A program made the position numbers and the translations under genes. Below the pieces are notes generated by a model. It had not been told where the DNA came from and made no database searches. It worked only from the letters and a program-made list of their open reading frames with translations. Below are positions 1,616 through 34,761 of a stretch of 35,219 bases of DNA, piece by piece (the stretch's first letter is position 1; each line of letters opens with the position of its first letter). Origin of the DNA: a virus (taxonomy: Duplodnaviria > Heunggongvirae > Uroviricota > Caudoviricetes); the IMG/VR virus record IMGVR_UViG_2548876867_000017, positions 1-35,219 of that record. One strand, 5' to 3'.

Positions 1616-1651
1616 GCCCCTATCGTTATAATACACGGTAGGGGCGTTTTT
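1616..1651 (+). terminator. rho-independent terminator (loop contains TATAAT-like hexamer)
   Basis: GCCCCTA..TAGGGGC stem followed by GTTTTT after the 1354..1599 stop; loop TTATAATACA could double as a -10 element for the recombinase gene. Confidence 0.5.
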
Positions 1652-1664
1652 GTTTGGAAATGGT

Positions 1665-3344
1665 ATGAAAACTAAACTGTATTCGTATATTCGCTTCTCA
1701 TCTATGCGTCAGAATGATGGTTCGAGTTATGAACGGCAAATCAGGATGGCGAGAGAGGTTGCGGCAAAGTATGACCTTGAACTGGTAAATGATTATCAGG
1801 ATCTGGGTGTATCTGCGTTTAAGGGTGCTAACTCTAAAACAGGGGCGCTATCTCGTTTCCTTGATGCAATTGGTAGATCCGTTCCTGTTGGTAGCTGGCT
1901 ATTCATTGAAAACTTGGACCGTTTATCCCGTGCCGATATTGTCAGTGCGCAGGAGTTATTCCTTTCAATAATCCGTAGGGGGATAACCATTGTTACTGGC
2001 ATGGATAACAAGATCTACTCGCTGGATACTGTTACCGCTAACCCGATGGACCTGATGTTCTCCATCCTTTTATTCATCCGTGGTAATGAGGAAAGCCAGA
2101 CTAAGCGCAATCGTACTAACTCAAGCGCACTGATTAAGATTAAAGCCCATCAAGAAAATCCCCAGAATCCGGCAGTGGCAATCGAGGAAGTTGGAAAGAA
2201 TATGTGGTGGACTGATACCACTTCCGGTTATGTGCTGCCTCATCCGGTGTACTTCCCTGTTGTTCAGGAGATTGTGGAATTGCGGAAGAATGGACGTTCA
2301 ACCGCCGAAATACTGGATCACCTTAACGAGACTTATACACCGCCACCAGCGGTTAGCAACAAGAAGCATTCAAAATGGTCACGGGCAATGGTTGAAAGGT
2401 TGTTCCATACCCGCGCTTTGATTGGTATCAAGGAAGTCTCTGTAGATGGTGTTAATTATGAGTTAAAGGATTATTACCCTCGTGTTATTGATGATGCTAC
2501 GTTCTATCACCTTAAGAAAAATATTGGTGCTAGAGCATGGAACTTTGGAGACAAGGAAGAAGTTAAACCGATCCCCCTGCTTAGTGGTATTGGCCTATTG
2601 AAATGTGATCATTGCGGTTGCGCTATGGTTAAAGTGAAGGGAACGAACAAACGTTCTGACCAGTATCGTTATACATGTGATGCGACCCGTTCACGTAGAC
2701 TTGATTGTGAGCATCCAAACTGGAGTTTTCGAGGCGACCAATTAGAGAAAGCTGTATTGCAATTGCTGGCTGATAAAATCTGGATTGCTGAGGACAAGGC
2801 TAATCCGGTTCCGGCGTTGAAAGTACAGGTTGATGAAATATCACGCAAGATTGATAACCTGATTGCCCTTTCTGCTATGACAGGAGCAACGAAGGAGTTA
2901 GCCGATCAGATTACTACCCTCAATAGCGAGCGTGAAACACTCTACAATCAGATCAAGATGGCAGAAGAGGAAATGTATTCTGTGGACTCTCAAGGCTGGG
3001 AGAAGCTCGCAGAATTTGATTTAGAAGATGTTTATAACGAGGAACGACTAAAGGTCCGGTTTAAGATTAAGCAAGCTCTAAAGCGGATCGGGTGTAGCAG
3101 GATTGACAGAAACAAAAACTTGTTTGTACTGGAATACATCGATGGAAAAACCCAGAGAGTTGTAATAGAAAATTCAAGAGGAACGAGGAAAGGCCGGATC
3201 TTCATTGATTTGAAAACTATCAATGATAGGCAGATTCTGGAGAGCAACGGGCTTGTTCTGCATCCATGTTTAGACATGCTGACAGATAAGAACTGGAAAC
3301 CAGAAGAGGAAATACCAGGTCCATTACAGGAATTTGGAATTTAA
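1665..3344 (+). CDS. large serine recombinase (integrase/resolvase family)
   Basis: N-terminal catalytic motif YSYIRFSSMRQ with conserved Ser, DRLSR motif, Cys-rich zinc-ribbon segment (CDHCGC..CDATRSRRLDCEH), C-terminal coiled coil; start moved from TTG 1650 to ATG 1665. Confidence 0.85.
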   Translation: MKTKLYSYIRFSSMRQNDGSSYERQIRMAREVAAKYDLELVNDYQDLGVSAFKGANSKTGALSRFLDAIGRSVPVGSWLFIENLDRLSRADIVSAQELFLSIIRRGITIVTGMDNKIYSLDTVTANPMDLMFSILLFIRGNEESQTKRNRTNSSALIKIKAHQENPQNPAVAIEEVGKNMWWTDTTSGYVLPHPVYFPVVQEIVELRKNGRSTAEILDHLNETYTPPPAVSNKKHSKWSRAMVERLFHTRALIGIKEVSVDGVNYELKDYYPRVIDDATFYHLKKNIGARAWNFGDKEEVKPIPLLSGIGLLKCDHCGCAMVKVKGTNKRSDQYRYTCDATRSRRLDCEHPNWSFRGDQLEKAVLQLLADKIWIAEDKANPVPALKVQVDEISRKIDNLIALSAMTGATKELADQITTLNSERETLYNQIKMAEEEMYSVDSQGWEKLAEFDLEDVYNEERLKVRFKIKQALKRIGCSRIDRNKNLFVLEYIDGKTQRVVIENSRGTRKGRIFIDLKTINDRQILESNGLVLHPCLDMLTDKNWKPEEEIPGPLQEFGI

Positions 3345-16829: not shown

Positions 16830-16883
16830 TATTCTTTTCCTTCTATTTTAAACAATAGGGCACATACCCGTAATTCTATTTAT

Positions 16884-17186
16884 TTAGCGGTTGCTCAAAC
16901 GTCTATAACGAAGATGAGCGATCCCTCGATTTGTGCTAACTGTAATTACTGCCCCTTGCGGTGCAATACAAGAATGAATCTGTCCCCAATCATGACCCTT
17001 ATGGCTTCCAGAAACACAAAAACCATGAATAAACAATTCAGAGTCACCACCGCCACCACCGGAAGAATGAGCACAGAATGAAATAGTCCCGAAAGCGTCG
17101 GCTGTCCAACCGTTAGGAATATCAAACCATCCTTGATTTGCTTTACCCGCCCTATTCCCCAAAGCGCCATCTACCCAAAATGCCAT
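16884..17186 (-). CDS. glycine-rich small protein, paralog 3 of a tandem triplet
   Basis: 100 aa; shares WFDIPNGW motif and Gly-rich core with the two upstream ORFs; RBS AGGAG; start overlaps upstream stop. Confidence 0.55.
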   Translation of the reverse strand: MAFWVDGALGNRAGKANQGWFDIPNGWTADAFGTISFCAHSSGGGGGDSELFIHGFCVSGSHKGHDWGQIHSCIAPQGAVITVSTNRGIAHLRYRRLSNR

Positions 17187-17491
17187 TAGTGCATTCTCCT
17201 GAATTTGAAATAATGCAAACTACCTTTACCCAATGTAAAGCTAACGGTAGCACCAGCGCCAACTAAAGAACTAGCACCCCAACTCCCAGCATCACCAGCA
17301 TGATGGCCTGATTCAATCAATCCATTTACAGCCAATTCAGAATCAAGATCACCAGCACCGTTAATGGCTTCCATATGAGCAAAGACAATTCCGCATGAGT
17401 CAGTAACCCAACCGTTTGGGATATCAAAATATCCACCATTAGCCCAAATACTAATAGCATTAGACATTCTTTGATTTATCCATCCAGCCAT
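17186..17491 (-). CDS. glycine-rich small protein, paralog 2
   Basis: 101 aa; YFDIPNGW motif, Gly-rich, C-terminal YFKF; RBS GGAG. Confidence 0.55.
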   Translation of the reverse strand: MAGWINQRMSNAISIWANGGYFDIPNGWVTDSCGIVFAHMEAINGAGDLDSELAVNGLIESGHHAGDAGSWGASSLVGAGATVSFTLGKGSLHYFKFRRMH

Positions 17492-17493
17492 AA

Positions 17494-17790
17494 TTAAAAC
17501 TCCATGAATTTAAAATATTCAATACCACCATCACCGCCGTGTCCACAGGTGACAGTACAGCCAGCAGGAACAAAGGCATTTATAGTAGATCCCCAATTAT
17601 TCCCACCACGACGACGAGCAACGGTCAAACCATCTACGTTAATCACACCATCAGCCCATCCACCGCCAGCATTATGACGCATGACAGCGACACCAGCGCG
17701 AGCAGTACCATAGCCGTTAGGAATATCAAATACATGCCATTTTAAAGCATCGATTTTAGTATTAATTTCACTACTTACCCAATATCCCAT
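17494..17790 (-). CDS. glycine-rich small protein, paralog 1
   Basis: 98 aa; VFDIPNGY motif, Gly-rich, C-terminal YFKF; RBS AAGGA. Confidence 0.55.
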   Translation of the reverse strand: MGYWVSSEINTKIDALKWHVFDIPNGYGTARAGVAVMRHNAGGGWADGVINVDGLTVARRRGGNNWGSTINAFVPAGCTVTCGHGGDGGIEYFKFMEF

Positions 17791-17828
17791 ATAAGAATCC
17801 TTAGCGGAGATTTCTCCCCGCTTTCCAA

Positions 17829-20800
17829 TTACCCTAATTTAGCTTCAATTGCAGCAAGACGTTCACGAAGAAGTTTATTTTCTTCGCTCATTTCTTGGAC
17901 CGCTTTAATTAAAAGCGCGTTCACTGCGGAGTTTGAAATTGTTAAAATTTCTTCTGGGTTATCAAGACCACCAATTTTTGCGGTTTTAACAGCTTCCGGT
18001 AATACCTCTTGTAAATCCTGTGCGATAATACCAATCTCATGACCTATAACTTCTCGGTCATTAAGAGATTTAACTTTATCGTAGGTTTTAACTTTGAGTT
18101 TATTTACCTTATCCACCGCATTTTCTTCGTAATCTTCAACATTAATTTTCAGACGACCATCGGAACGAATATAAACATCGTTAAAGTTACCATTACCAGG
18201 AGAATAGAAAGTACCATCATGATGGAACTCGAATACAGCTTGAGGATGACCAGCCGCTGGCGATGCCTCCGCAGACCCAACACGAATAATTGCTTGCCCC
18301 CAATTTTGAGGAACACGACGCATACCAAAATCGACGGCAGTTGTATACCCTTGATTGGTGATTAAACTTCTTCCTTTAATAATTGGATAATAGCTATCTG
18401 GTCCAACATAGCCATGATCGACGAATATTGGCGCTTCTAAGCCCCATTGATCACCCCAACCTCCAGATTGGCTAGCAGTCCAACGTTCACCATGAACATA
18501 GAATCGAACGTTATTGACATGGGTCATTTCGACGCCTTTTGGACTTAGCGCGATATCCCCCGCGTTTGTAATGTTTACAGCAGCATTAGTAGCATAACTA
18601 TAGAACGCTAATCCATTATCAGCACCACCTTTACCGATATACCAGTTGTTATTATCGGCACAAGTACCCAGCAAATATATAGACGAATCGCCACTTTCGG
18701 CATTCATGATGATTGCATCAGATCCGCGATTAACTTTCAGTTTACCAAAGAAGGAGTTTTTAATGGTATTATCGCCTAATCGTTCAAATTCAGCTAAAAA
18801 TCCTTTTGAGTCACGAAGACTTAAAACGTTATTTCGACCTGTATTGCTTGCCCCCCAATGGACAAGTTCCATATAGTCCATAGATTGACGAGAACCAGCT
18901 TTAAAGAAAAGGTTGTCTTCAAGACGGGTACTACCATCAATTCCCAAATGCAAACAACGAGCAGTTTCAGTGCCACCTAAATCTAATCCACCTTCGGCGA
19001 AATCATAACTGAATGGTCTACGACTATTCCACGGTCCAAAGGAATCACCGAGATCTGTGGTAAGAATATGGAAACCAACACCATCATTTCTAAAAATTAA
19101 GCCATAATTGCCACCTTTAACAGCCAAACGAGCATTTTCAGATAATGCAACTTCGCTATTCATTACGATTTTCTGGCCTTTACCGCCAGTAATATGCAAT
19201 TCACCGTTTTCGATCAAGTTTATCGAGTTTTGACCGTTGTCGTTCCACCAAATAAAATCTTTGGTTGTTCCATCACCAAAACCAAACCAACCATTACGAA
19301 CATCTTGTCCAGTGCGATAATCCATGAAATTAAAATGGCTTGATTCGTTTGGTCCTCGACGAATATCAATACCAGAATTTCCACCAACACCACCATCCAA
19401 TGTTAATTTCTTGACATGTAACCCGGATGTTACTGTCAGCAATAATTCCTGGTTTGTATCTTCGTATCCAGTAGCAAGACGATATGCGTTATCATCAACT
19501 GTCTCATGCCAGATTGTAGCTGGTGCACAACTACGGAAGCGACGCAACATCTTTTTAGCATTTGTCGGTTGTTCGTTTAAATGCTCAATATCATATTGGC
19601 CTTGATGATTGCCAGCAAAATTTAACGTCCCACGGTTGCTAAAGTTATTGAACGATGAAATGTTAAGAGCATCAAAAATTTCATCTGCAACAGGTTTTTC
19701 ACCACCCAGATATTCAGGAGTATCCAACAGGTTTAAAGAAACACCACCGGAAGAAACTTGATATTCTGCTAAAACAAATCCTGTATGTGCACCGTAGTAA
19801 GCGTAAAGATCGTAATTATCACCATCGGTAGGAATTGCACAAAAATGTTGTTCGTGATACCAGATGCTATAATAAGCATTGAATACAACACCTTTCGGGC
19901 TATTGTTGCCGCATCGAATCACCAGTTCGATAATATTGGCTTGTCCATTCTGTCCGACGTTATAACCGTTGCCACCAACTAAGCGGATCTTAGCACTACG
20001 ACCGTGTTGCTGTGGCAGTGTTAAACTACCGAGTTTAAACCAACCGCCCTCGATCCCAAAATTAAGCGTCTTCTGGAACAGTCGGTCAATTTCTGCTTTC
20101 GAATATGCGCCAATTTCAGCCGGAGTAGGTTTATCACCTTCGTGATACATGCGGTGAGAATATGACAAGTTACCCAATTCATCGTAGCCGTATGTTTTTA
20201 CAGTCGGAACAACGTTAGAACCATATGTAAAATCAAAACCGCGAGAATGATTTAGACCGCTAGGATGTGGCACATGCAAAGCTAATGCCAAATGACCATC
20301 CATATCATTAGTACGGAATGCACCAAAATAATCAAGGTTACGCGCACTTGGATCATCAAAATAGTTTGCGGTCTTAGACAGCAAATAGCCATCAGTGTAA
20401 GTGTTTACGTGCTTTTTGATGTACTTGCCATCAGCAGATCCATCGGCTGCATCAATACGGCTTTCTAAGCGTGCCAGTTCGGAATCAGTGTAAGACTTGT
20501 TATTGTCAACTTTGCTATGAATTGCTGTATTTTTGGCCTCAACATCACGGGTTAATGCTGCGACGTTATCCGCTGCCTCCTGCTTATTGGCTGCAATCAC
20601 ACCAGCAAGATGATTGTAAGTGTCGGTTAACTGATTTCCCGCATAGGTTTTATTTGCTGCGATAGTGCGGTCAGTTTCTGCCTTAATCAAATCAACCTTG
20701 TCATTAATTGCTTTGTGATTGCTTGCGATGGTTGCATCAGTACGGGATTTAATATCATCAACTTTTTTATTGATGCGGGTGTCCAGTTCCTGTGTTGCTA

Positions 20801-22155: not shown

Positions 22156-22578
22156 TTAAAAACGCGCTACATAAGAAAATTTAAGGCTAAGTGTCCCAAC
22201 GATACCCCCATCACTAGAATCATCGTCATAATCGGTATTAGAAGCTACTGGAGTGATATCTGAAATAGAGAAGCCCAAATCTTTAAAACGTGGGTTATCC
22301 GGCTGAATCTGGATTATCTGGCAAATACCCTCATGAATTTTTGTTTCATGAATCTGAGAATATAATTGCATTTCGATAACGCATTCAGCTTGCATTGCAT
22401 TACCACCACGGACCCTATTGTAAGTCTCATTCATTCCGGTAATCCAACAAACCACGTCATCACTAAAGCCTTGCTGAGTTTGTTCTACGTTTAAAGCCAG
22501 ACCTAAATCTTGTTCGATAATATCCTGCAAGGCGCGTTTGATTTTCAGTCTAGGCATATTATTAACGGTAGCGAGCAT
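22156..22578 (-). CDS. hypothetical head-tail joining protein
   Basis: Start moved to ATG 22578 with RBS AGGGGG 7 nt upstream (ORF-track start 22659 overlaps upstream gene by 98 nt). Confidence 0.45.
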   Translation of the reverse strand: MLATVNNMPRLKIKRALQDIIEQDLGLALNVEQTQQGFSDDVVCWITGMNETYNRVRGGNAMQAECVIEMQLYSQIHETKIHEGICQIIQIQPDNPRFKDLGFSISDITPVASNTDYDDDSSDGGIVGTLSLKFSYVARF

Positions 22579-22852
22579 GTGTACCCCCTGCACGAGCAAT
22601 AAAGCAATCAGAAGTATTATCACCATTGCGCTTAACGTATTGAACTTTGAAGCGTTCACCGTCTACAATGACAACATCACCCTGATTTAAGTCTCCCTCA
22701 CGACAAAATAGAAATTCTGATTCTGTAATTACCCCTTGTTCGTCGGTAGTAGTAATTTCATGGTAAGCACGAATTGATTTACCACCTTCCACCGAAAATA
22801 CAGGAGCACTTTTAAACATTCTTGATAATTGTGATTCTGATAATTTGAACAT
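22562..22852 (-). CDS. hypothetical head completion / neck protein
   Basis: 96 aa; first gene after the capsid terminator; RBS AAGGGGG. Confidence 0.45.
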   Translation of the reverse strand: MFKLSESQLSRMFKSAPVFSVEGGKSIRAYHEITTTDEQGVITESEFLFCREGDLNQGDVVIVDGERFKVQYVKRNGDNTSDCFIARAGGTHARYR

Positions 22853-27184: not shown

Positions 27185-29089
27185 TTAGAACGATGTTACC
27201 CAGCTACGGCCTCTATTTGGGCGTCTGACGATGTTTTGACGTTGTGGTCGTGTGATTGGCTTAGTTTCTTCTATTTGCTCGTTAGATTGCGATTTAGGAG
27301 CTTTTACGGGTTCTTCGACAACACGGTTTAAGCTGTCTTTCATTGCAATGAGTTTATCCCATGACATTTTTGAAAGGACGTAGCGAGAAGCCGCTGTAGC
27401 ATACACGGCGCAGTCGAGCGCCTCGTTCCTAACGCCTGGGTTCTTTACCCATCTCACGCCAGTAGTAGTACGCTTGACAGATTCACTTAAAAGCTGATCG
27501 AGATAATCATCAGGAACGGTGTCTGATATTTCTAAGGCAATATGAGGATTATCTTTCAGGTTCCTAGCCAACATTTCACGAAATGCAGTTTTACCCACGT
27601 TAACACCCAACATAAGCAATTCATGACCACCTGTGCGGGTAGGTTTAACCGGAATGATCGGAGCGTTACCAGCAGAACTACCTTTGATAGCGTGTAAGTT
27701 CTTCCACTTGCCGCAAATACGGTATCCAGCTTGAGTGAATCGACCGTTCGATGTATCAAGGAAGCTGGCGAGCATAGGAACACGATCACCCGATACAGTA
27801 GTAAATTTGGTTTTATGGAAGTTGATTAATCTATCCCATACAGGTGATTCATATCGTTCACAGTTATGATCGTAAAAGCTGCGGTGATCCAGAATATAAA
27901 TCTTATCCTTTGCCACGCCCATGATCGTAGTTTCTGCGCGATCTAATTGCTGGTCAGTACCCGCACACAAGAAAATCACGTCATCAGGGATATTCTCGAT
28001 AGAAACATCTGTTTTGAGTTGTTCCAGTTCATTTGCTTCTACTGCCGTGTCCTGATCGTCGTATACCTTGCCTAACACGGTGTTAAAAAAGGATTGTAAA
28101 TCAAAGGATTGCCACGCATGACTAAAATCAACCACACAAGCGCGGATCGTACTGAAAGGTGAATACAGACGACTGATCCAGAATCCTGCTACTTCACTTT
28201 CACGGGTTGCTCTCCACTCGCCTTGCGCTACTGCCCTGATTCGTTCCCCTTCTGTCCATGCGTTCTTACAGTGGGGGCAAATATAACGAGCGGTATCAGG
28301 ATCGGGTAAGTTCTTACCATCAATGTTACGCCATTCAAATTGAACGTTTTCCCACTCGATCACCTGGTGTTCCCCGCAATGAGGACACGGAACAAAAAAC
28401 ATACGCATATCACTTGATAACCATTGCTGGTTAATGATTCCCAGCTTATTGGTTGGGGTACTAGAAACAATCAATCGAGCTTCATCACCAAAGGTAGTTA
28501 AACGGTTTGCAGTTAGTGCCACCGGACAACCTTCTTCGGTGATTGTTGCTGCGTCGCATTCGTCTACAATCCCTAACTTGGCAGTACGCCCACGCAAACT
28601 TGAAGGACTGGTCAAAGAAACCATGTAAAGGAAATGGTTTGTTTTTAGCTGAATCTGGTTATTGTTGTTTACCGCATTACGATCATTCTTATCTGTTACC
28701 ACTTCCTGTAATGCCGGACATGCTTCAATAGAAGGACGGATCTTAGTATTCAAGTACATAGCCACTTCTTTAGCGGTACTTTGCCCGATAATGATATTGC
28801 ACGGATCGTTTGCCATCTGGTTAAACATGATCCCTGACATGATGGTCGTCTTTCCGATCTGCGCACTCGTACAAAAAACGTACTTCTTTTTCTTCTCAAG
28901 GAAAGGAGCATCAATCATGCCTTTCTGAAATGACAGTAATTTAACTTTATCCCCAGCACGAGGACCATCGACTAGCGTTAGATTCGCTTCGCACCATTCA
29001 GAAGGAAGGAGCTTAGGCGGTGGCGTAATATATTTGGCTGCATTTTTAAGAATCTTTTTTAATTTTGCCTTATTAGAAATCAGTTTCAT
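27185..29089 (-). CDS. terminase large subunit (lambda gpA-like)
   Basis: 634 aa; motifs [28 protein letters not shown] and [14 protein letters not shown] correspond to lambda gpA segments as I recall them; Walker A-like AQIGKT; RBS GAGGG. Confidence 0.85.
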
Positions 29090-30124: not shown

Positions 30125-30955
30125 TTACAGTCCGAAGACTTCCAGTGATCCAACATTCTGACGGAGACGTTCAGCCGCTTTATTTTGAATCAGAATAGTG
30201 TTGTTCGGCTTAGGAAGATTCAGAGTTGCTTTTTGTTCTTCTTCCAAAACACCCAATTCAACCAGCACCGGAAGCACATCAACAGTAAACTCAAGTTGGT
30301 AGTGAGCATTCATGCGGCAGAAAGAGAGAGAAGAATCATTAGCAACATACCCACACGGCTTGTTATTTTCATCATAGACGCGCTCGATGTATCCAGCAGT
30401 ACGTAAGGCCGTCAGTGCTTCTTTAACCTTCGTAGCGCCCTTTTTAGCGCCTAACAGACGGGTCATTGAATGGCTATCTACAGACTTACGAACATGAAGT
30501 TCAATCAGTTGTTTGTTTTCGCGAGTTTTCTTTAACGCCAGTTCGATCCAGTCTGTTTCTTCAAAGTGTTCATATGGATTAACCGGAACATTAGCTTTCC
30601 CTTCTTTCATCAAACGCCATTCTTTAGCAATTTTGAAGCGAAGCGGTGCATCGTATCCCATAACCAGAGTATTACAGAGATCTTCGTCCAGTTCATACAT
30701 CGGGCGAGATTGATTATTCTTATCAAAATATGAAGATTCTACAAAATACCCCAGCGCAAAATTGCGCCCGGCTAATTCGCTTCCTTTTTCAAGAGAATCA
30801 ATCATGCGACGAAAATCACGCATAACATCCTTATGATTCTTTCCGGTCAATTCAGCAATCTGACGGGTAGACATGGTCAGCGGTTTGGTGTTATCAACAA
30901 CCAGAGACACGGAAGCAGTTTTAACAGCAGTATTCATAGTAGTAACAGTATTCAT
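30125..30955 (-). CDS. Rha-family / antirepressor-like regulatory protein
   Basis: N-terminal TMSTRQIAELTGKNHKDVMRDFRRMID fits the Rha/ORF6N DNA-binding pattern; 276 aa; RBS AAGGGG. Confidence 0.55.
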   Translation of the reverse strand: MNTVTTMNTAVKTASVSLVVDNTKPLTMSTRQIAELTGKNHKDVMRDFRRMIDSLEKGSELAGRNFALGYFVESSYFDKNNQSRPMYELDEDLCNTLVMGYDAPLRFKIAKEWRLMKEGKANVPVNPYEHFEETDWIELALKKTRENKQLIELHVRKSVDSHSMTRLLGAKKGATKVKEALTALRTAGYIERVYDENNKPCGYVANDSSLSFCRMNAHYQLEFTVDVLPVLVELGVLEEEQKATLNLPKPNNTILIQNKAAERLRQNVGSLEVFGL

Positions 30956-31433: not shown

Positions 31434-31462
31434 ATCATAAAAAAGTCATAAATTTTTGTCAA
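31434..31462 (-). promoter_or_regulatory. sigma70-like promoter driving leftward genes
   Basis: On minus strand TTGACA (31462..31457), 17 bp spacer, TATGAT (31439..31434); the -35 is half of a TGTCAA-6nt-TTGACA inverted repeat. Confidence 0.5.
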
Positions 31463-31497
31463 TATACCTTGACAAGACGCCAAAGGGTTGACCTAAC

Positions 31498-31947
31498 TTA
31501 CAGCATATCTAAGCCTTCATCGTAACCGTAGAAGCCACCGTGAGAAGAGAAAGCGATTGGTGCGTAGTCTTCGTCTTCCTCATCTTGTTCTGGGGCTTCC
31601 TGAGCGGTTTCTTTACCGTAATTAAACATTGCTTCATCCAGTTCACGAAGAGTCAAGAAGCTACCCAGGTCAATGTCACCGGAACGGACTTGAAACGGCA
31701 GATCATCACGAACAATAATTGCTGGAATATCGTTGTATTGAAGACGACCCTCATCAGTAAAACAGTCGATGATCACAGTAGGACGACCATTTCGTTTTAA
31801 AGCGTAGAAAGCAGTTGAGTAGTTGGAGTCTTCGGAATGACGAATGATGTTATAACCACGATGAGCGAAAACTTCTAGCATATGGAAGTTACCATAGTTT
31901 TCAGAGTCCAGACCCAGAAGTACGAAAGGAGTTTTAGTATTGATCAT
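31498..31947 (-). CDS. hypothetical protein with acidic C-terminal region
   Basis: Start moved to ATG 31947 (MINTKTPF) with RBS AGAGGA; conserved upstream box shared with gene 3418..4416. Confidence 0.55.
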   Translation of the reverse strand: MINTKTPFVLLGLDSENYGNFHMLEVFAHRGYNIIRHSEDSNYSTAFYALKRNGRPTVIIDCFTDEGRLQYNDIPAIIVRDDLPFQVRSGDIDLGSFLTLRELDEAMFNYGKETAQEAPEQDEEDEDYAPIAFSSHGGFYGYDEGLDML

Positions 31948-32524
31948 AGTGGTATCCTCTAAAAGAAAGTGAATCAAGTAAGTTCACTATTATTTATAAA
32001 GAGAAAATTCTTGTTATTATGAAAGGTGATTGTATTCAGTCGGGCAAAGCCCTCCTTCATGATTTGATTAAATCATCATCAAAACGAAGAAGTATCTTTA
32101 GAATATAAGAATCTTTCTTTTGGAGAAATAATAATCAGGAAGCAATTTAGCAACCGAAGGTTGCAATCCCGAAGGGATACCAATACCTTTCTAGAAAGTG
32201 ATTGTTACTCACTTCGTTCGTTTACTAGAATCAGTTAGTAACTAGTATTAAATCCCTTTCTAAGAAAATCCTTTCAAAAGCGAGTGAACGCCGTAGGCGT
32301 GAACGTGAGCGAAGCGAACTATCCAATCCCTTTCGAATCCTGCTTGCAGGTCTTAGAAGGTGTTGATGGGCGCTTCGCGCACGGCTACGCCGTATTCTTT
32401 TTGCGAGATCTTTCTTGAACGTAGTGAGAGAAAACGAGCAAAAAGGAGAACGTTAGTTCGAATTTTATATTCTATGGTCTGTGGGGTGAAATGTCTTTCA
32501 AGATCATACGCTTATGAGATTGAA

Positions 32525-32648
32525 GTGTAGGGTTAGTGTAGGTGTGTAGGTTTCATAGTGTAGGTTTGAGGGTGTTATAGTGTAGGTTTACTGACTAGTG
32601 TAGTGTAGGCCAATCCCTTTAAAGCGTAGGTTTGTAGTGTAGGTTTTT
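32525..32648. repeat. iteron-like array of about 8 copies of (A)GTGTAGGTTT
   Basis: Direct repeats at about 32525, 32536, 32544, 32558, 32580, 32603, 32626, 32637, spaced 8-23 bp, in an ORF-free region and followed by an AT-rich tract. Confidence 0.6.
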
Positions 32649-32751
32649 CATCAAAAATTTTGATAGAAAATTCTTGTATATTATTTAACCGGAAAATCAC
32701 CAAAAATCGCTGTAAATGTATGATTTAAAAAGAATTATCAAAAGGTCGCCG

Positions 32752-32760
32752 TGCTATAAT
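32752..32760 (+). promoter_or_regulatory. extended -10 promoter element (TGcTATAAT)
   Basis: TGCTATAAT at 32752-32760 in AT-rich region upstream of rightward genes; weak -35. Confidence 0.4.
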
Positions 32761-32840
32761 AGGTTATAAAGGTTGATAATCGTTATCCGCCATTTTCACA
32801 CAAAAATTTTGATAGTCATTTCTCGCTTAGGTCAAGTGCA

Positions 32841-32869
32841 TTGACAACTGTCAAGGATTATTTTATACT
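32841..32869 (+). promoter_or_regulatory. near-consensus sigma70 promoter for rightward genes
   Basis: TTGACA (32841-32846), 17 bp spacer, TATACT (32864-32869); -35 is part of palindrome TTGACA-AC-TGTCAA. Confidence 0.6.
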
Positions 32870-33211
32870 TTTTCTCATTGGTAGGGGTTGAAATTTTCGA
32901 AACAATCCCCATATTGATGATAAACAAGATTTTTTCGTGTATAAATACATGCATGAAATGATTGTTCACTTCTGAAAATCCCCTGATTCACTGTTAACAC
33001 ACACAGCACTGGTTAAACACACAGTGCTTTTTCGATTGAATAATGTACGAATTGATTAATTATTAATCTTCTCTTTAGCAATTCGTGCTCCCACTGATCA
33101 GATATACAGTGGTTTTGCAGGGTTTTCTGAAATGACTTTTATAAATAGAAGTATCGAGGGCGAAAAGCTCTTTTTATTGTCCTTATTAATCCACATTTGA
33201 GGAATCTACTT

Positions 33212-33507: not shown

Positions 33508-34503
33508 ATGAAAAATTCTAAGCGCATCACCTTCAACCTGTTTATTAAATCCAACGGCAAACTGAACATTACCGTCATGGAAGGTAAAGCAAGCAAACAA
33601 GACAAATCCTTTGAAGTAGTATCCGGTAAGACTCTGACCGAAATGCGTCAGAATGCTGGCATCAAAGACGGTGCTGAATGGCAGATCACTAACCGTTTCG
33701 ACAAACGTCACGTTAAACCTACACTGGTAGAAGGTGAATCCGTTTATTGCTTCGCTCGTGCTGTTAAAGCCGATGAAACTTACTATCTCGCTGTTGTTAA
33801 AACTGCTTCCGGCTTCCGTGCTGTAATGCATCACAAGAGCAAGCGTAACGAATACGGCGTAGAGACCCAGGAAGTCGCAAAACGCTTCCGTACTGTTGCT
33901 ACCGAATCCACTGTAAAGGATGTTTCTGGTACTGTTAACACCGTTAAAGGCGGTTCCTTCTACAACCACGCATTACAGGTTACTTCCTCCTTCTTCTGCA
34001 AAAAAGAAGCACAGAAAGAAGTTGCTCCGGTAGTAGTTGAAGAAGTTAAAGAAGAAGTTGCAGTGGTTGAATCTTCCGAAGTTGAAGCACTGAAAGCACG
34101 CATTGCTGAACTGGAAGCTGAAAACGCATCTCTGAAAGCTGAACTGGCAGCACAGGAAACCACTTTCGAAGTAGCAGCGGTTGAAGTTGAAGCAGTTGAA
34201 GAAAAATCCATTGATGAAGAACTGGAAGAACTCCTTAACTATCGCTGGGGTAACGGTGAAGAAGTAGAACAAGAAGTTGCTCCGGTAGTTGTTCCGGTTG
34301 AAGTTGAAGAAGAATCCGCACCAGTTACCAACTTTGAAACACTGCGCAATAACTTTATGGCTAAATTCAAAACTAGCTGGGAAGATACCGAAGAAGAACA
34401 AGAAGAGATTGATGTAAACGAAGACGAGATCCGCGAAGCACACATGGCACTTCATGACGCTATCTACGACACCAACTACAGCGCCTACGCATACGCAGCT
34501 TAA
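33508..34503 (+). CDS. highly expressed acidic protein with repeat-rich coiled-coil C-terminal half
   Basis: 331 aa; RBS AGGAG; strong bias to highly-expressed E. coli-type codons; basic N-terminal domain, then repeated EVAPVVV(E/P)VE(E) units and leucine-zipper-like EALKARIAELEAENASLKAEL. Confidence 0.6.
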   Translation: MKNSKRITFNLFIKSNGKLNITVMEGKASKQDKSFEVVSGKTLTEMRQNAGIKDGAEWQITNRFDKRHVKPTLVEGESVYCFARAVKADETYYLAVVKTASGFRAVMHHKSKRNEYGVETQEVAKRFRTVATESTVKDVSGTVNTVKGGSFYNHALQVTSSFFCKKEAQKEVAPVVVEEVKEEVAVVESSEVEALKARIAELEAENASLKAELAAQETTFEVAAVEVEAVEEKSIDEELEELLNYRWGNGEEVEQEVAPVVVPVEVEEESAPVTNFETLRNNFMAKFKTSWEDTEEEQEEIDVNEDEIREAHMALHDAIYDTNYSAYAYAA

Positions 34504-34518
34504 TAGAGGGGTGAATCT

Positions 34519-34761
34519 ATGATGAATCAAAACAAAGAATTTCTGGGTAATCTGATGTTAGAAATTACCAAAATGAAAGAAAGAATGGTAGCGATGGAAT
34601 CAGAGATTAAAACTCTTAAAGCTGATAATAAGGCGTTGAGAAAGTCCTTAAAGCTGATTGATGAGACTAATGCGGTTATGATGGATCATGTATTCCCTGA
34701 GTGGCGAAATGAAACTAAACCTACACAACATAAGAAACTTACACTTCGAATTGTTGCATAA
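34519..34761 (+). CDS. small coiled-coil protein
   Basis: 80 aa; RBS GAGGGG; heptad-like pattern. Confidence 0.5.
   Translation: MMNQNKEFLGNLMLEITKMKERMVAMESEIKTLKADNKALRKSLKLIDETNAVMMDHVFPEWRNETKPTQHKKLTLRIVA

Follow-up and report, generated by a model that had tools for sequence, protein, structure and literature searches.

A conserved palindrome of opposed mini-hairpins in the gene-free control region of temperate Escherichia coli prophages

Mini-hairpin motifs have been described at the G4 primase site, in ssiA of RSF1010 (CCGAAGG), and in the N4 hairpin promoters (2026 review, PMC13037366), and ssiA and ssiB of RSF1010 oriV are inverted repeats located on complementary strands beside iterons (PMC8567376). 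Here we describe a comparable arrangement in a 35,219-nucleotide stretch of virus DNA (IMG/VR record IMGVR_UViG_2548876867_000017, Caudoviricetes; the whole stretch is referred to as the window), which makes up most of a temperate E. coli prophage. The element is a cluster of GC-rich hairpins at 32140–32400 with a palindromic core at 32275–32402. Its hairpins exceed chance expectation, have been kept through compensatory changes, lie on opposite strands, and belong to one module with a nearby array of repeats and an orphan protein. Only two sequence versions, class A (that of the window) and class B, occur at more than 60 loci drawn from viral contigs, metagenomes, and E. coli genomes, and a third lineage occurs in the lytic Krischvirus RB49.

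The core resembles RSF1010 ssiA/ssiB in having two inverted hairpin units on complementary strands beside iteron-like repeats, and in its CCGAAGG-type G-N-A apex (PMC8567376, PMC13037366). The opposed units occupy 32288–32316 on the plus strand and 32371–32393 on the minus strand, 125 bp from the repeats. Compared with those of RSF1010, they are shorter, a conserved long-range helix connects them, and the RSF1010 proteins are not encoded here: no RepB’ primase, RepA helicase, or RepC initiator was found among the neighbouring proteins with Pfam, PHROGs, and NCBIfam. At the level of sequence, the comparison with ssiA covered the published CCGAAGG apex motif, which the two have in common (PMC13037366). 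With the complementary-strand origin of phage G4 (hairpin I, with GCGAAAGC) and with d(GCGAAGC), the core shares the exact heptamer GCGAAGC, present once on each strand; motifs of this type reportedly mark priming sites in phages (PMC13037366). The DNA of G4, however, is single-stranded and carries its three hairpins on the one strand, whereas the genome here is double-stranded and the hairpins form a palindrome. Host primase prefers CTG. A G4-type site combines a stable hairpin, with a GCGNAGC or GCGNNAGC mini-hairpin, and a CTG 3’ of it on the template; the core has mini-hairpins on both strands, with the CTG start triplet in the centre of class A only.

We counted as perfect those hairpins that have a stem of at least 4 bp with at least three GC pairs and a loop of 3–4 nt. 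Six are present in the 261 nt of the cluster, compared with 0.51 ± 0.72 in dinucleotide shuffles, and none of 2000 shuffles reached six. The cluster is the densest 260-nt stretch of the whole window (background 0.33 per 260 nt), five of the six loops are triloops, and the GC content is 0.45 as against 0.32–0.35 in the flanks. The initial annotation, made from the sequence alone, had proposed such a cluster, and its hairpins were found where it placed them or 1–7 nt away. The long imperfect inverted repeat it had noted was recovered by an independent repeat search, with arms of 21 nt (32296–32316 and 32371–32391) that are 81% complementary. Its claim that the region is free of open reading frames (ORFs) also holds, as no ORF of at least 60 amino acids lies within 31977–33197, a gap of 1.2 kb. 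Since homologues carry 1-nt indels and the longest ORF has 56 amino acids, a coding function is excluded for the element. Two hairpins upstream of the core had been assigned UUCG tetraloops on a minus-strand transcript. TTCG is indeed present on that strand, but the stems are fully complementary, so that the loops are 3 nt in length (UUC on the minus strand, GAA on the plus strand) and not tetraloops.

The loops share a pattern. Six of the 25 GCGNAGC/CCGNAGG heptamers of the window fall within the 261 nt of the cluster (background 0.14, Poisson 1e-8), four of them on the plus strand in the left half and two on the minus strand in the right half. The exact heptamer GCGAAGC is accompanied by GCGTAGC, CCGTAGG, and CCGAAGG variants nearby. 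Loops read G-N-A on the plus strand in the left arm and on the minus strand in the right arm. Class B and RB49 keep this central layout, with GCGAAGC on the plus strand followed by GCGAAGC and GCGTAGC on the minus strand. Three independent loop polymorphisms alter only the N of G-N-A, in each case on the strand where the loop reads G-N-A. One of these, at 32375, replaces GAA by GTA in the minus-strand loop without any change in the left arm of the long-range helix; the loop polymorphisms are not compensated in the long-range partner, giving A.A in 5 of 15 sequences.

The core can fold, in the predicted secondary structure, as a four-way junction in which a closing stem (CAAAAG/CTTTTTG) surrounds a first hairpin (hp1), a central arm, and a terminator-like hairpin (hpT). 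Its components are hp1, the GCGAAGCG/CGCTTCGC helix (P2), an inner helix (P3), and hpT (Table 1). In a joint alignment of classes A and B, the pairs of hp1, P2, P3, and hpT are formed in 92% of cells, as compared with 35–47% when partners are slid by one to three columns, and RNAalifold recovers all four helices unguided. For P3, 83% of cells are paired, and three G.U pairs of class A are Watson-Crick pairs in class B. Four compensatory stem changes occur across the three lineages. Between classes A and B, both partners differ at two stem pairs, and RB49 contributes two more: hp1 is CGTC-GCA-GACG in class B and ACTCC-GTA-GGAGT in RB49, with the changes at two different pairs, and hpT is changed once each in class B (GGGC/GCCC) and RB49 (CCGC/GCGG). 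As diversity is low, consisting of two classes and RB49, the covariation evidence rests on about four events. Folded as DNA, the core has a z-score of about -2.45 on both strands.

Table 1. Coordinates of the features discussed, numbered from the first nucleotide of the window.
Feature	Position	Strand
Large serine recombinase (serine integrase)	1650–3344	
Rha/antirepressor-like gene, end of short leftward operon	30125–30955	
Hairpin GGGC-AAA-GCCC, left edge of structured region	32042–32052	
75-nt element (TTTGATTAAATCATCATCAAAACGAAGAAGTATCTTTAGAAT...) in common with RB49-like Krischvirus phages	32063–32140	+
Hairpin GCAACC-GAA-GGTTGC (CCGAAGG mini-hairpin motif)	32150–32164	+
Hairpin ATCCC-GAA-GGGAT (CCGAAGG motif)	32166–32178	+
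Two copies of repeated box AATCCCTTTC / AAAATCCTTTC, last sequence common to both classes before ~32283	32251–32275	
Core element, non-coding imperfect palindrome of ~130 bases	32275–32402	+
hp1, ACGCC-GTA-GGCGT (CCGTAGG motif)	32288–32300	+
P2 left arm TGAGCGAAGCG, contains canonical GCGAAGC mini-hairpin; invariant in both classes	32306–32316	+
Inner helix P3, 32325–32336 with 32353–32364; class-specific palindrome centre	32325–32364	+
Apical hairpin CCTG-CTTG-CAGG within P3	32339–32350	+
P2 right arm CGCTTCGCGCA (plus strand GCGC-TTC-GCGC, 32370–32380); mini-hairpin GCGC-GAA-GCGC on minus strand	32371–32381	-
hpT, ACGGC-TAC-GCCGT (32381–32393) and tail ATTCTTTTT; terminator-like on plus strand, GCGTAGC on minus strand	32381–32402	+
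Further conserved hairpin CTTTTTGCGAGATCTTTCT / AGAGAAAACGAGCAAAAAG, CGTAG loop	32397–32445	
Iteron-like array, AGTGTAGG(TTT) direct repeats	32524–32646	+
AT-rich stretch with two ATCAAAAATTTTGAT palindromes and rightward promoter-like sites	32650–32869	+
Class-specific orphans: 331-amino acid coiled-coil protein and 80-amino acid protein	33508–34761	+

Conservation was assessed in an alignment of ten prophage copies. The block 32236–32480 has a mean pairwise identity of 97.5% (minimum 95%) and the core 97.8%, whereas the same ten copies are 76% identical just left of the block, 84% just right of it, and ~89–90% further right. The near-invariant block extends ~80 nt past the terminator-like tail and takes in the further hairpin at its right, whose class B counterpart (ACACAT-GAGCGTAGCGA-ATGTGT) is found at the same place. 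The neighbouring 59-amino acid protein falls to 53% identity while the element keeps an exact match of 24 nt.

Classes A and B have their whole sequence in common up to 32283 and then diverge for ~1 kb. In this divergent part class B (e.g. L034) differs in sequence but keeps the layout of class A: it has a GCA-loop hairpin, an inner helix, a GGGC-TAC-GCCC hairpin, and a further hairpin with a CGTAG loop, and keeps the conserved arms GTGAGCGAAGCGA and GCGCTTCGCGCA, 80 nt apart instead of 54. The part shared by the two classes to the left (31975–32274) has essentially no covariation (term 0.05), and its hairpins vary. Homologues of the hairpin at the left edge read GGC-TTC-GCC or TGGC-TAAA-GCCA, with one pair changed on both sides from G-C to U-A. 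The GCAACC/GGTTGC hairpin has a GCA loop in L005-type copies, and L007 has a different hairpin there (GACGCTCT-CC-AGAGCGTC). We also observed an 11-nt box, CAAT(A/C)CCTTTC, in eight copies between 32021 and 32620, five direct and three inverted (as GAAAGGTGATTG). Two of the inverted pairs correspond to predicted long-range helices, and the box could equally be a protein-binding site.

The third lineage lies in the RB49 intergenic region between gene 165 and the DprA-like gene 164, where the same motifs occur in the same order: ACTCC-GTA-GGAGT; TCGCGAAGCGATATCC; an inserted second copy of the 75-nt element; ACTAGAAGTG; CGCTTC; and CCGC-TAC-GCGG. This region is nearly invariant among Krischviruses and has no named annotation, with at most an overlapping “hypothetical protein” in a few records. 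The 75-nt element is 81% identical to unannotated intergenic sequence in 59 Krischvirus records, occurring in two copies in RB49 (L051 405–450 and 552–597) and at up to four places per genome. Some prophages have alternative versions of it at the same spot, each of which keeps a -10-like hexamer.

Searches for further relatives gave the following. Viral-contig scans returned classes A and B and RB49-like phages only, and a composite pattern search of them added no further lineage. A metagenome scan returned known variants and GC-rich chance matches only. None was found in species-representative genomes scanned with the 59-amino acid neighbour, and a motif-sequence search of the literature gave chance primer matches only. 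Scanning with the right-arm DNA pattern gave unrelated matches only, including a cyanobacterial tandem repeat. In that case the 21-mer GCGCTTCGCGCAGGCTACGCC (the right arm without its 1–4-nt spacer) lies within a 38-nt tandem or dispersed repeat of the filamentous cyanobacteria Tychonema, Microcoleus, and Limnofasciculus (L217 6235–6331, and many other loci), which is probably an unrelated palindromic repeat.

Starting ~125 bp right of the core, GTGTAGG repeats are spaced by 11, 22, 22, 23, about 22, and about 12 bp, a phasing of 11/22 bp that places them on one face of the helix. The sequence AGTGTAGG occurs as seven exact 8-mers in the window, compared with 0.37 expected. In class B this array is swapped for CAGGGGCAA (TTTCAGGGGCAAAA) repeats, about ten copies of TTTCAGGGGCAAAA together with three GTGTAGG, and two consensus promoters are present. 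The class of the element co-varies perfectly with the repeat array and with the 331-amino acid (33508–34503) and 80-amino acid (34519–34761) proteins, the former being replaced by a 313-amino acid protein in class B. The small terminase, the 59- and 150-amino acid proteins, and Rha do not follow it. The class A and B proteins have a coiled coil and C-terminus in common and differ in their first ~135 residues, which fits a swappable DNA-binding domain. Homology searches with the 331-amino acid protein returned only E. coli and Shigella hypothetical proteins and six representative clusters, with no family match.

Next to the array, the AT-rich stretch contains an extended -10 at ~32765 and a TTGACA-17-TATACT promoter-like site at 32841–32869. 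By analogy, repeats, AT-rich stretch, and promoters are arranged as in an iteron origin or in an operon under iteron control. Iteron-type origins include P1 oriR, pSC101, R6K, and RK2. The locus is like these in its direct repeats with helical 11/22-bp phasing, AT-rich neighbour, adjacent promoters, and downstream protein co-varying with the repeats. It is unlike them in having no DnaA-box enrichment, no recognizable Rep family, no plasmid carrier, and a 300-nt leader with terminator-like hairpins.

The reading that we favour, held tentatively and at well below even confidence, is that the cluster serves as the hairpin-forming arm of a replication or control region of iteron type, where it would act as opposed single-strand signals, as DNA rather than as a gene. 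We count for it the hairpin density, the enrichment of G-N-A heptamers, the loop polymorphisms confined to N, and the four compensatory stem changes; the high identity of the block relative to its left flank, its continuation past the tail, and the lack of a conserved promoter for the element; and the class switch from 32283, which carries with it the repeats and the 331- and 80-amino acid proteins, the 11/22-bp spacing beside an AT-rich stretch, and the differing N-terminal parts of otherwise related class-specific proteins. In the mechanism we propose, the core would consist of two opposed units, in each of which a 4–5-bp hairpin looped by G-N-A precedes a GCGAAGC-type mini-hairpin, on the plus strand in the left unit and on the minus strand in the right one. 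The class-specific 331-amino acid orphan would bind the phased repeats, which lie 125 bp to the right, and adjacent DNA would become unwound or supercoiled. Both units would then fold into very stable hairpins, one per strand, and these would mark a start point for the host priming or loading machinery, a task performed by ssiA/ssiB in RSF1010 oriV and by hairpin I in the G4 complementary-strand origin. We infer the roles of the repeats as origin, of the orphan protein as initiator, and of the single-stranded DNA hairpins in recruiting priming.

At least 58 complete E. coli genomes contain this prophage family, in which neither replication genes nor a repressor are recognizable, and the 1.2-kb gene-free region is therefore the best lead to its replication and control. 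Priming or loading signals beside a new pair of iterons and initiator would constitute a minimal origin of new design in a double-stranded DNA phage, and would give the GCGAAGC mini-hairpin, which is unusually stable, a natural role on both strands. Should the element function as RNA instead, it would be a new family occurring in lytic as well as temperate coliphages. In both cases, the element marks a junction where replication or control modules swap between phages. A broader proposal, for which our confidence is low, is that the double mini-hairpin palindrome represents a previously undescribed family of structured elements, common to temperate E. coli prophages (in two interchangeable classes) and lytic Krischviruses. 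It would be either a new non-coding RNA of phages or a protein-independent signal from which DNA synthesis starts on each of the two strands, and would move between unrelated phages with its 75-nt companion.

Several findings weigh against opposed single-strand signals at an iteron-type origin. No primase, helicase, or recognizable Rep initiator was found among the neighbouring proteins (Pfam, PHROGs, NCBIfam), DnaA boxes are not enriched (31 compared with 41.5 expected), and the plasmid collection gave no match to the region. A fold search with two AlphaFold models of the 331-amino acid protein (mean predicted local distance difference test scores 54 and 64) gave no informative match. RB49 is a lytic phage with its own replisome and lacks an iteron array. 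The central CTG of the class A palindrome is absent from the class B centre, and in a few class B copies the hpT loop is AAA or TAAA, breaking G-N-A. The remaining points concern the strand. As RNA, the plus strand has better fold z-scores than the minus strand for the class A core (-3.37 versus -1.85), for class B (-2.90 versus -1.73), and for 32027–32402 (-5.33 versus -3.20). Five pair types are G.U on the plus strand only, compared with two on the minus strand only, and a terminator scan flagged hpT as a plus-strand terminator in both the window and RB49. The initial annotation had proposed a structured non-coding element with emphasis on the minus strand, and had mentioned neither the iteron-like array, nor the division of the module into two classes, nor the related element of Krischviruses. 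The element is strongly conserved, but folding energies and G.U-only pairs favour the plus strand. This strand evidence is modest.

These strand findings are what would be expected of a plus-strand structured non-coding RNA or long leader, an explanation we regard as possible and rank a close second. The four-way junction would form its 3’ domain and would end at hpT as a weak intrinsic terminator. Its start may be near 32027 or at the RB49-like element, for a length of ~300–375 nt, and it may have a role in early gene, replication, or immunity control. In keeping with an RNA are the unguided recovery of all four helices by RNAalifold and the U-rich tail of hpT, as well as an extended -10 promoter-like site on the plus strand at 31993–32020. 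In RB49, moreover, the element has the orientation of the two genes beside it and is located between an upstream terminator and the promoter-like sequence of the downstream gene. Neither strand, however, was found to have a conserved promoter for the element; the best candidate nearby (32202–32231) is missing from class B, and in L001 a 9-nt deletion destroys it. The class B hpT was not flagged by the terminator scan, its T-run being 9 nt from the stem, and the near-invariant block does not stop at the terminator. Nor would a plus-strand RNA explain right-arm triloops whose first and third bases are conserved, and for RB49 the fold z-score of the minus strand is no worse than that of the plus strand (-2.51 versus -1.82). 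Rfam 15 gave no meaningful match up to E = 10 for the window region or for the loci of class B and RB49. The small RNA put forward in the initial annotation is still a candidate, weakened by the missing conserved promoter and by a terminator-like tail that is canonical only in one prophage class and RB49.

Processed immunity RNAs are known from P4 (CI) and from P1, P7, and N15 (C4-type). Like these, the element is structured, non-coding, and in the control region of a temperate phage; no recognizable CI repressor was found in the phage, and an antirepressor-like (Rha/Ant) operon is nearby. Unlike these, it has no Rfam C4 match, no identified target complementarity, and no promoter that was found. 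A terminator/antiterminator switch, in which the 3’ arm of hp1 would pair with the 3’ arm of hpT, was considered and rejected, as the pairing is lost in RB49 and in the class B copies with AAA or TAAA loops. ARAGORN identified no tRNA or transfer-messenger RNA in the cluster region, and the region has no hydrophobic peptide suggestive of a type I toxin.

An improbable third explanation is that of a terminator or insulator that doubles as a recombination linker, stopping stray transcription before the rightward promoters and providing arms as homology patches for module exchange. The promoter-stem-loop cassettes (PeSLs) of RB49 and phi1 are documented as terminators and shuffling sites (PMC2839356, PMC4122927). 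They flank variable genes, come from the same phage group and are, like the element, intergenic stem-loops near promoters at module boundaries. The class boundary falls exactly at the start of the core structure (32283), with other mosaic joints around it, the prophage has both the 75-nt element and tail-fibre DNA (80–94% identity) in common with Krischviruses, the element lies upstream of promoter-like sites in both phage types, and its A-run and T-run flanks resemble a bidirectional terminator. PeSLs, however, are typically single GGGG...CCCC hairpins fused to consensus sigma-70 promoters (PMC2839356), whereas the element has multiple helices and is 450 bp from the nearest consensus promoter, a strong one. 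The region lies between divergent promoters, leaving little to terminate, and the conservation of hp1, P2, and P3 exceeds what a terminator needs. The gene 165/164 region of RB49 is not mentioned in the two PeSL papers (PMC2839356, PMC4122927).

The initial annotation had also suggested a stabilizing 5’ leader for the leftward transcript, that is, a structured minus-strand leader that would stabilize or regulate the mRNA of the 150-amino acid gene and the Rha operon. Minus-strand promoter-like sites do exist at 32497–32469 and 32490–32462, and 13 nt at 32113–32125 are complementary to the ribosome-binding region of the 150-amino acid gene on the leftward transcript. We nevertheless consider this very unlikely: the 150-amino acid gene has its own promoter-like site (32017–31989), matched at 2686–2659 in class B; the distal candidates lack conserved -35 regions; fold scores are poorer for the minus strand; the pairing to the ribosome-binding region has no covariation; and one prophage has replaced the 150-amino acid gene yet kept the element.

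Least likely of all is a cos or packaging site for the lambda gpA-like terminase or a phage recombinase target, both of which had likewise been suggested, since a GC-rich, partly two-fold symmetric, highly conserved element resembling cosN in a phage with a gpA-like large terminase is outweighed by the position of the small terminase gene (phrog_57, E = 5e-16), which lies close to the end of the prophage, ~4 kb further right, and has a co-varying upstream region of its own, by the occurrence of both element classes with the same terminase alleles (class follows the orphan protein instead), by the related element in headful-type T4-like phages, and, for the recombinase, by the location of the site inside integrated prophages whose junction is in ycdX, which means that it is not the attP of the serine integrase. 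The small terminase gene (L001 24029–24580, ~1.2 kb past the right end of the window) is ~6 kb from the large terminase gene, with the early or control region between the two. A cos site is probably located beside the small terminase gene, judging from an upstream region that varies with its allele.

Right of the AT-rich stretch, a ~300-nt leader runs from the 32841–32869 promoter to the 59-amino acid gene. It has a conserved 5’ hairpin, GGGGTTG...CAATCCCC (32884–32912), which has a freely varying loop and occurs in class B too, and two terminator-like hairpins (33007–33030 and 33156–33180). These suggest control by termination and antitermination. Operator-like palindromes were also observed. 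The two ATCAAAAATTTTGAT copies (32652–32666 and 32801–32815) are 149 bp apart around the extended -10, TTGACAACTGTCAA (32841–32854) overlaps the -35 of the strong rightward promoter, and a related palindrome, TTGTCAA...TTGACAA (31447–31468), is located at the strong leftward promoter 31462–31434.

Three rightward genes, encoding proteins of 59, 331, and 80 amino acids without family match, lie right of the gap. PDB sequence searches with the 150-, 201-, and 59-amino acid neighbouring proteins gave no match. The orphans of 150 (31498–31950, minus strand) and 331 amino acids (33508–34503, plus strand) flank the gap and have strongly acidic C-terminal tails with aromatic residues (...EEDEDYAPIAF... 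and ...EDTEEEQEEIDV...YDTNYSAYAYAA), which we take to be reminiscent of the tails of single-strand DNA-binding proteins.

The minus strand of the prophage carries lysis, tail, and head genes, followed by the lambda gpA-like large terminase at 27185–29089. The region is present in 58 complete E. coli chromosomes at 82–97% identity. In strain UTME-9 the prophage interrupts ycdX beside ghrA, ~4 kb right of the hairpin cluster. Some copies, but not all, carry a cargo gene for a lysozyme inhibitor of the LprI family (L001 24935–25714), which is located past the small terminase gene and before the end of the prophage in ycdX. ARAGORN predicted a 91-nt tRNA-Lys(UUU) at 22301–22391 on the plus strand, inside ORF 22156–22659 and opposite to the structural genes, which may be a false positive. 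No isolated phage resembles the prophage, except in tail-fibre segments common with T4-like phages. A 1136-amino acid protein encoded between the head and tail genes (16868–20376) has 80–94% nucleotide identity to genes for the distal subunit of the long tail fibre of Krischvirus and T4-like phages, and this similarity in sequence implies a recent exchange between temperate and lytic phage lineages.

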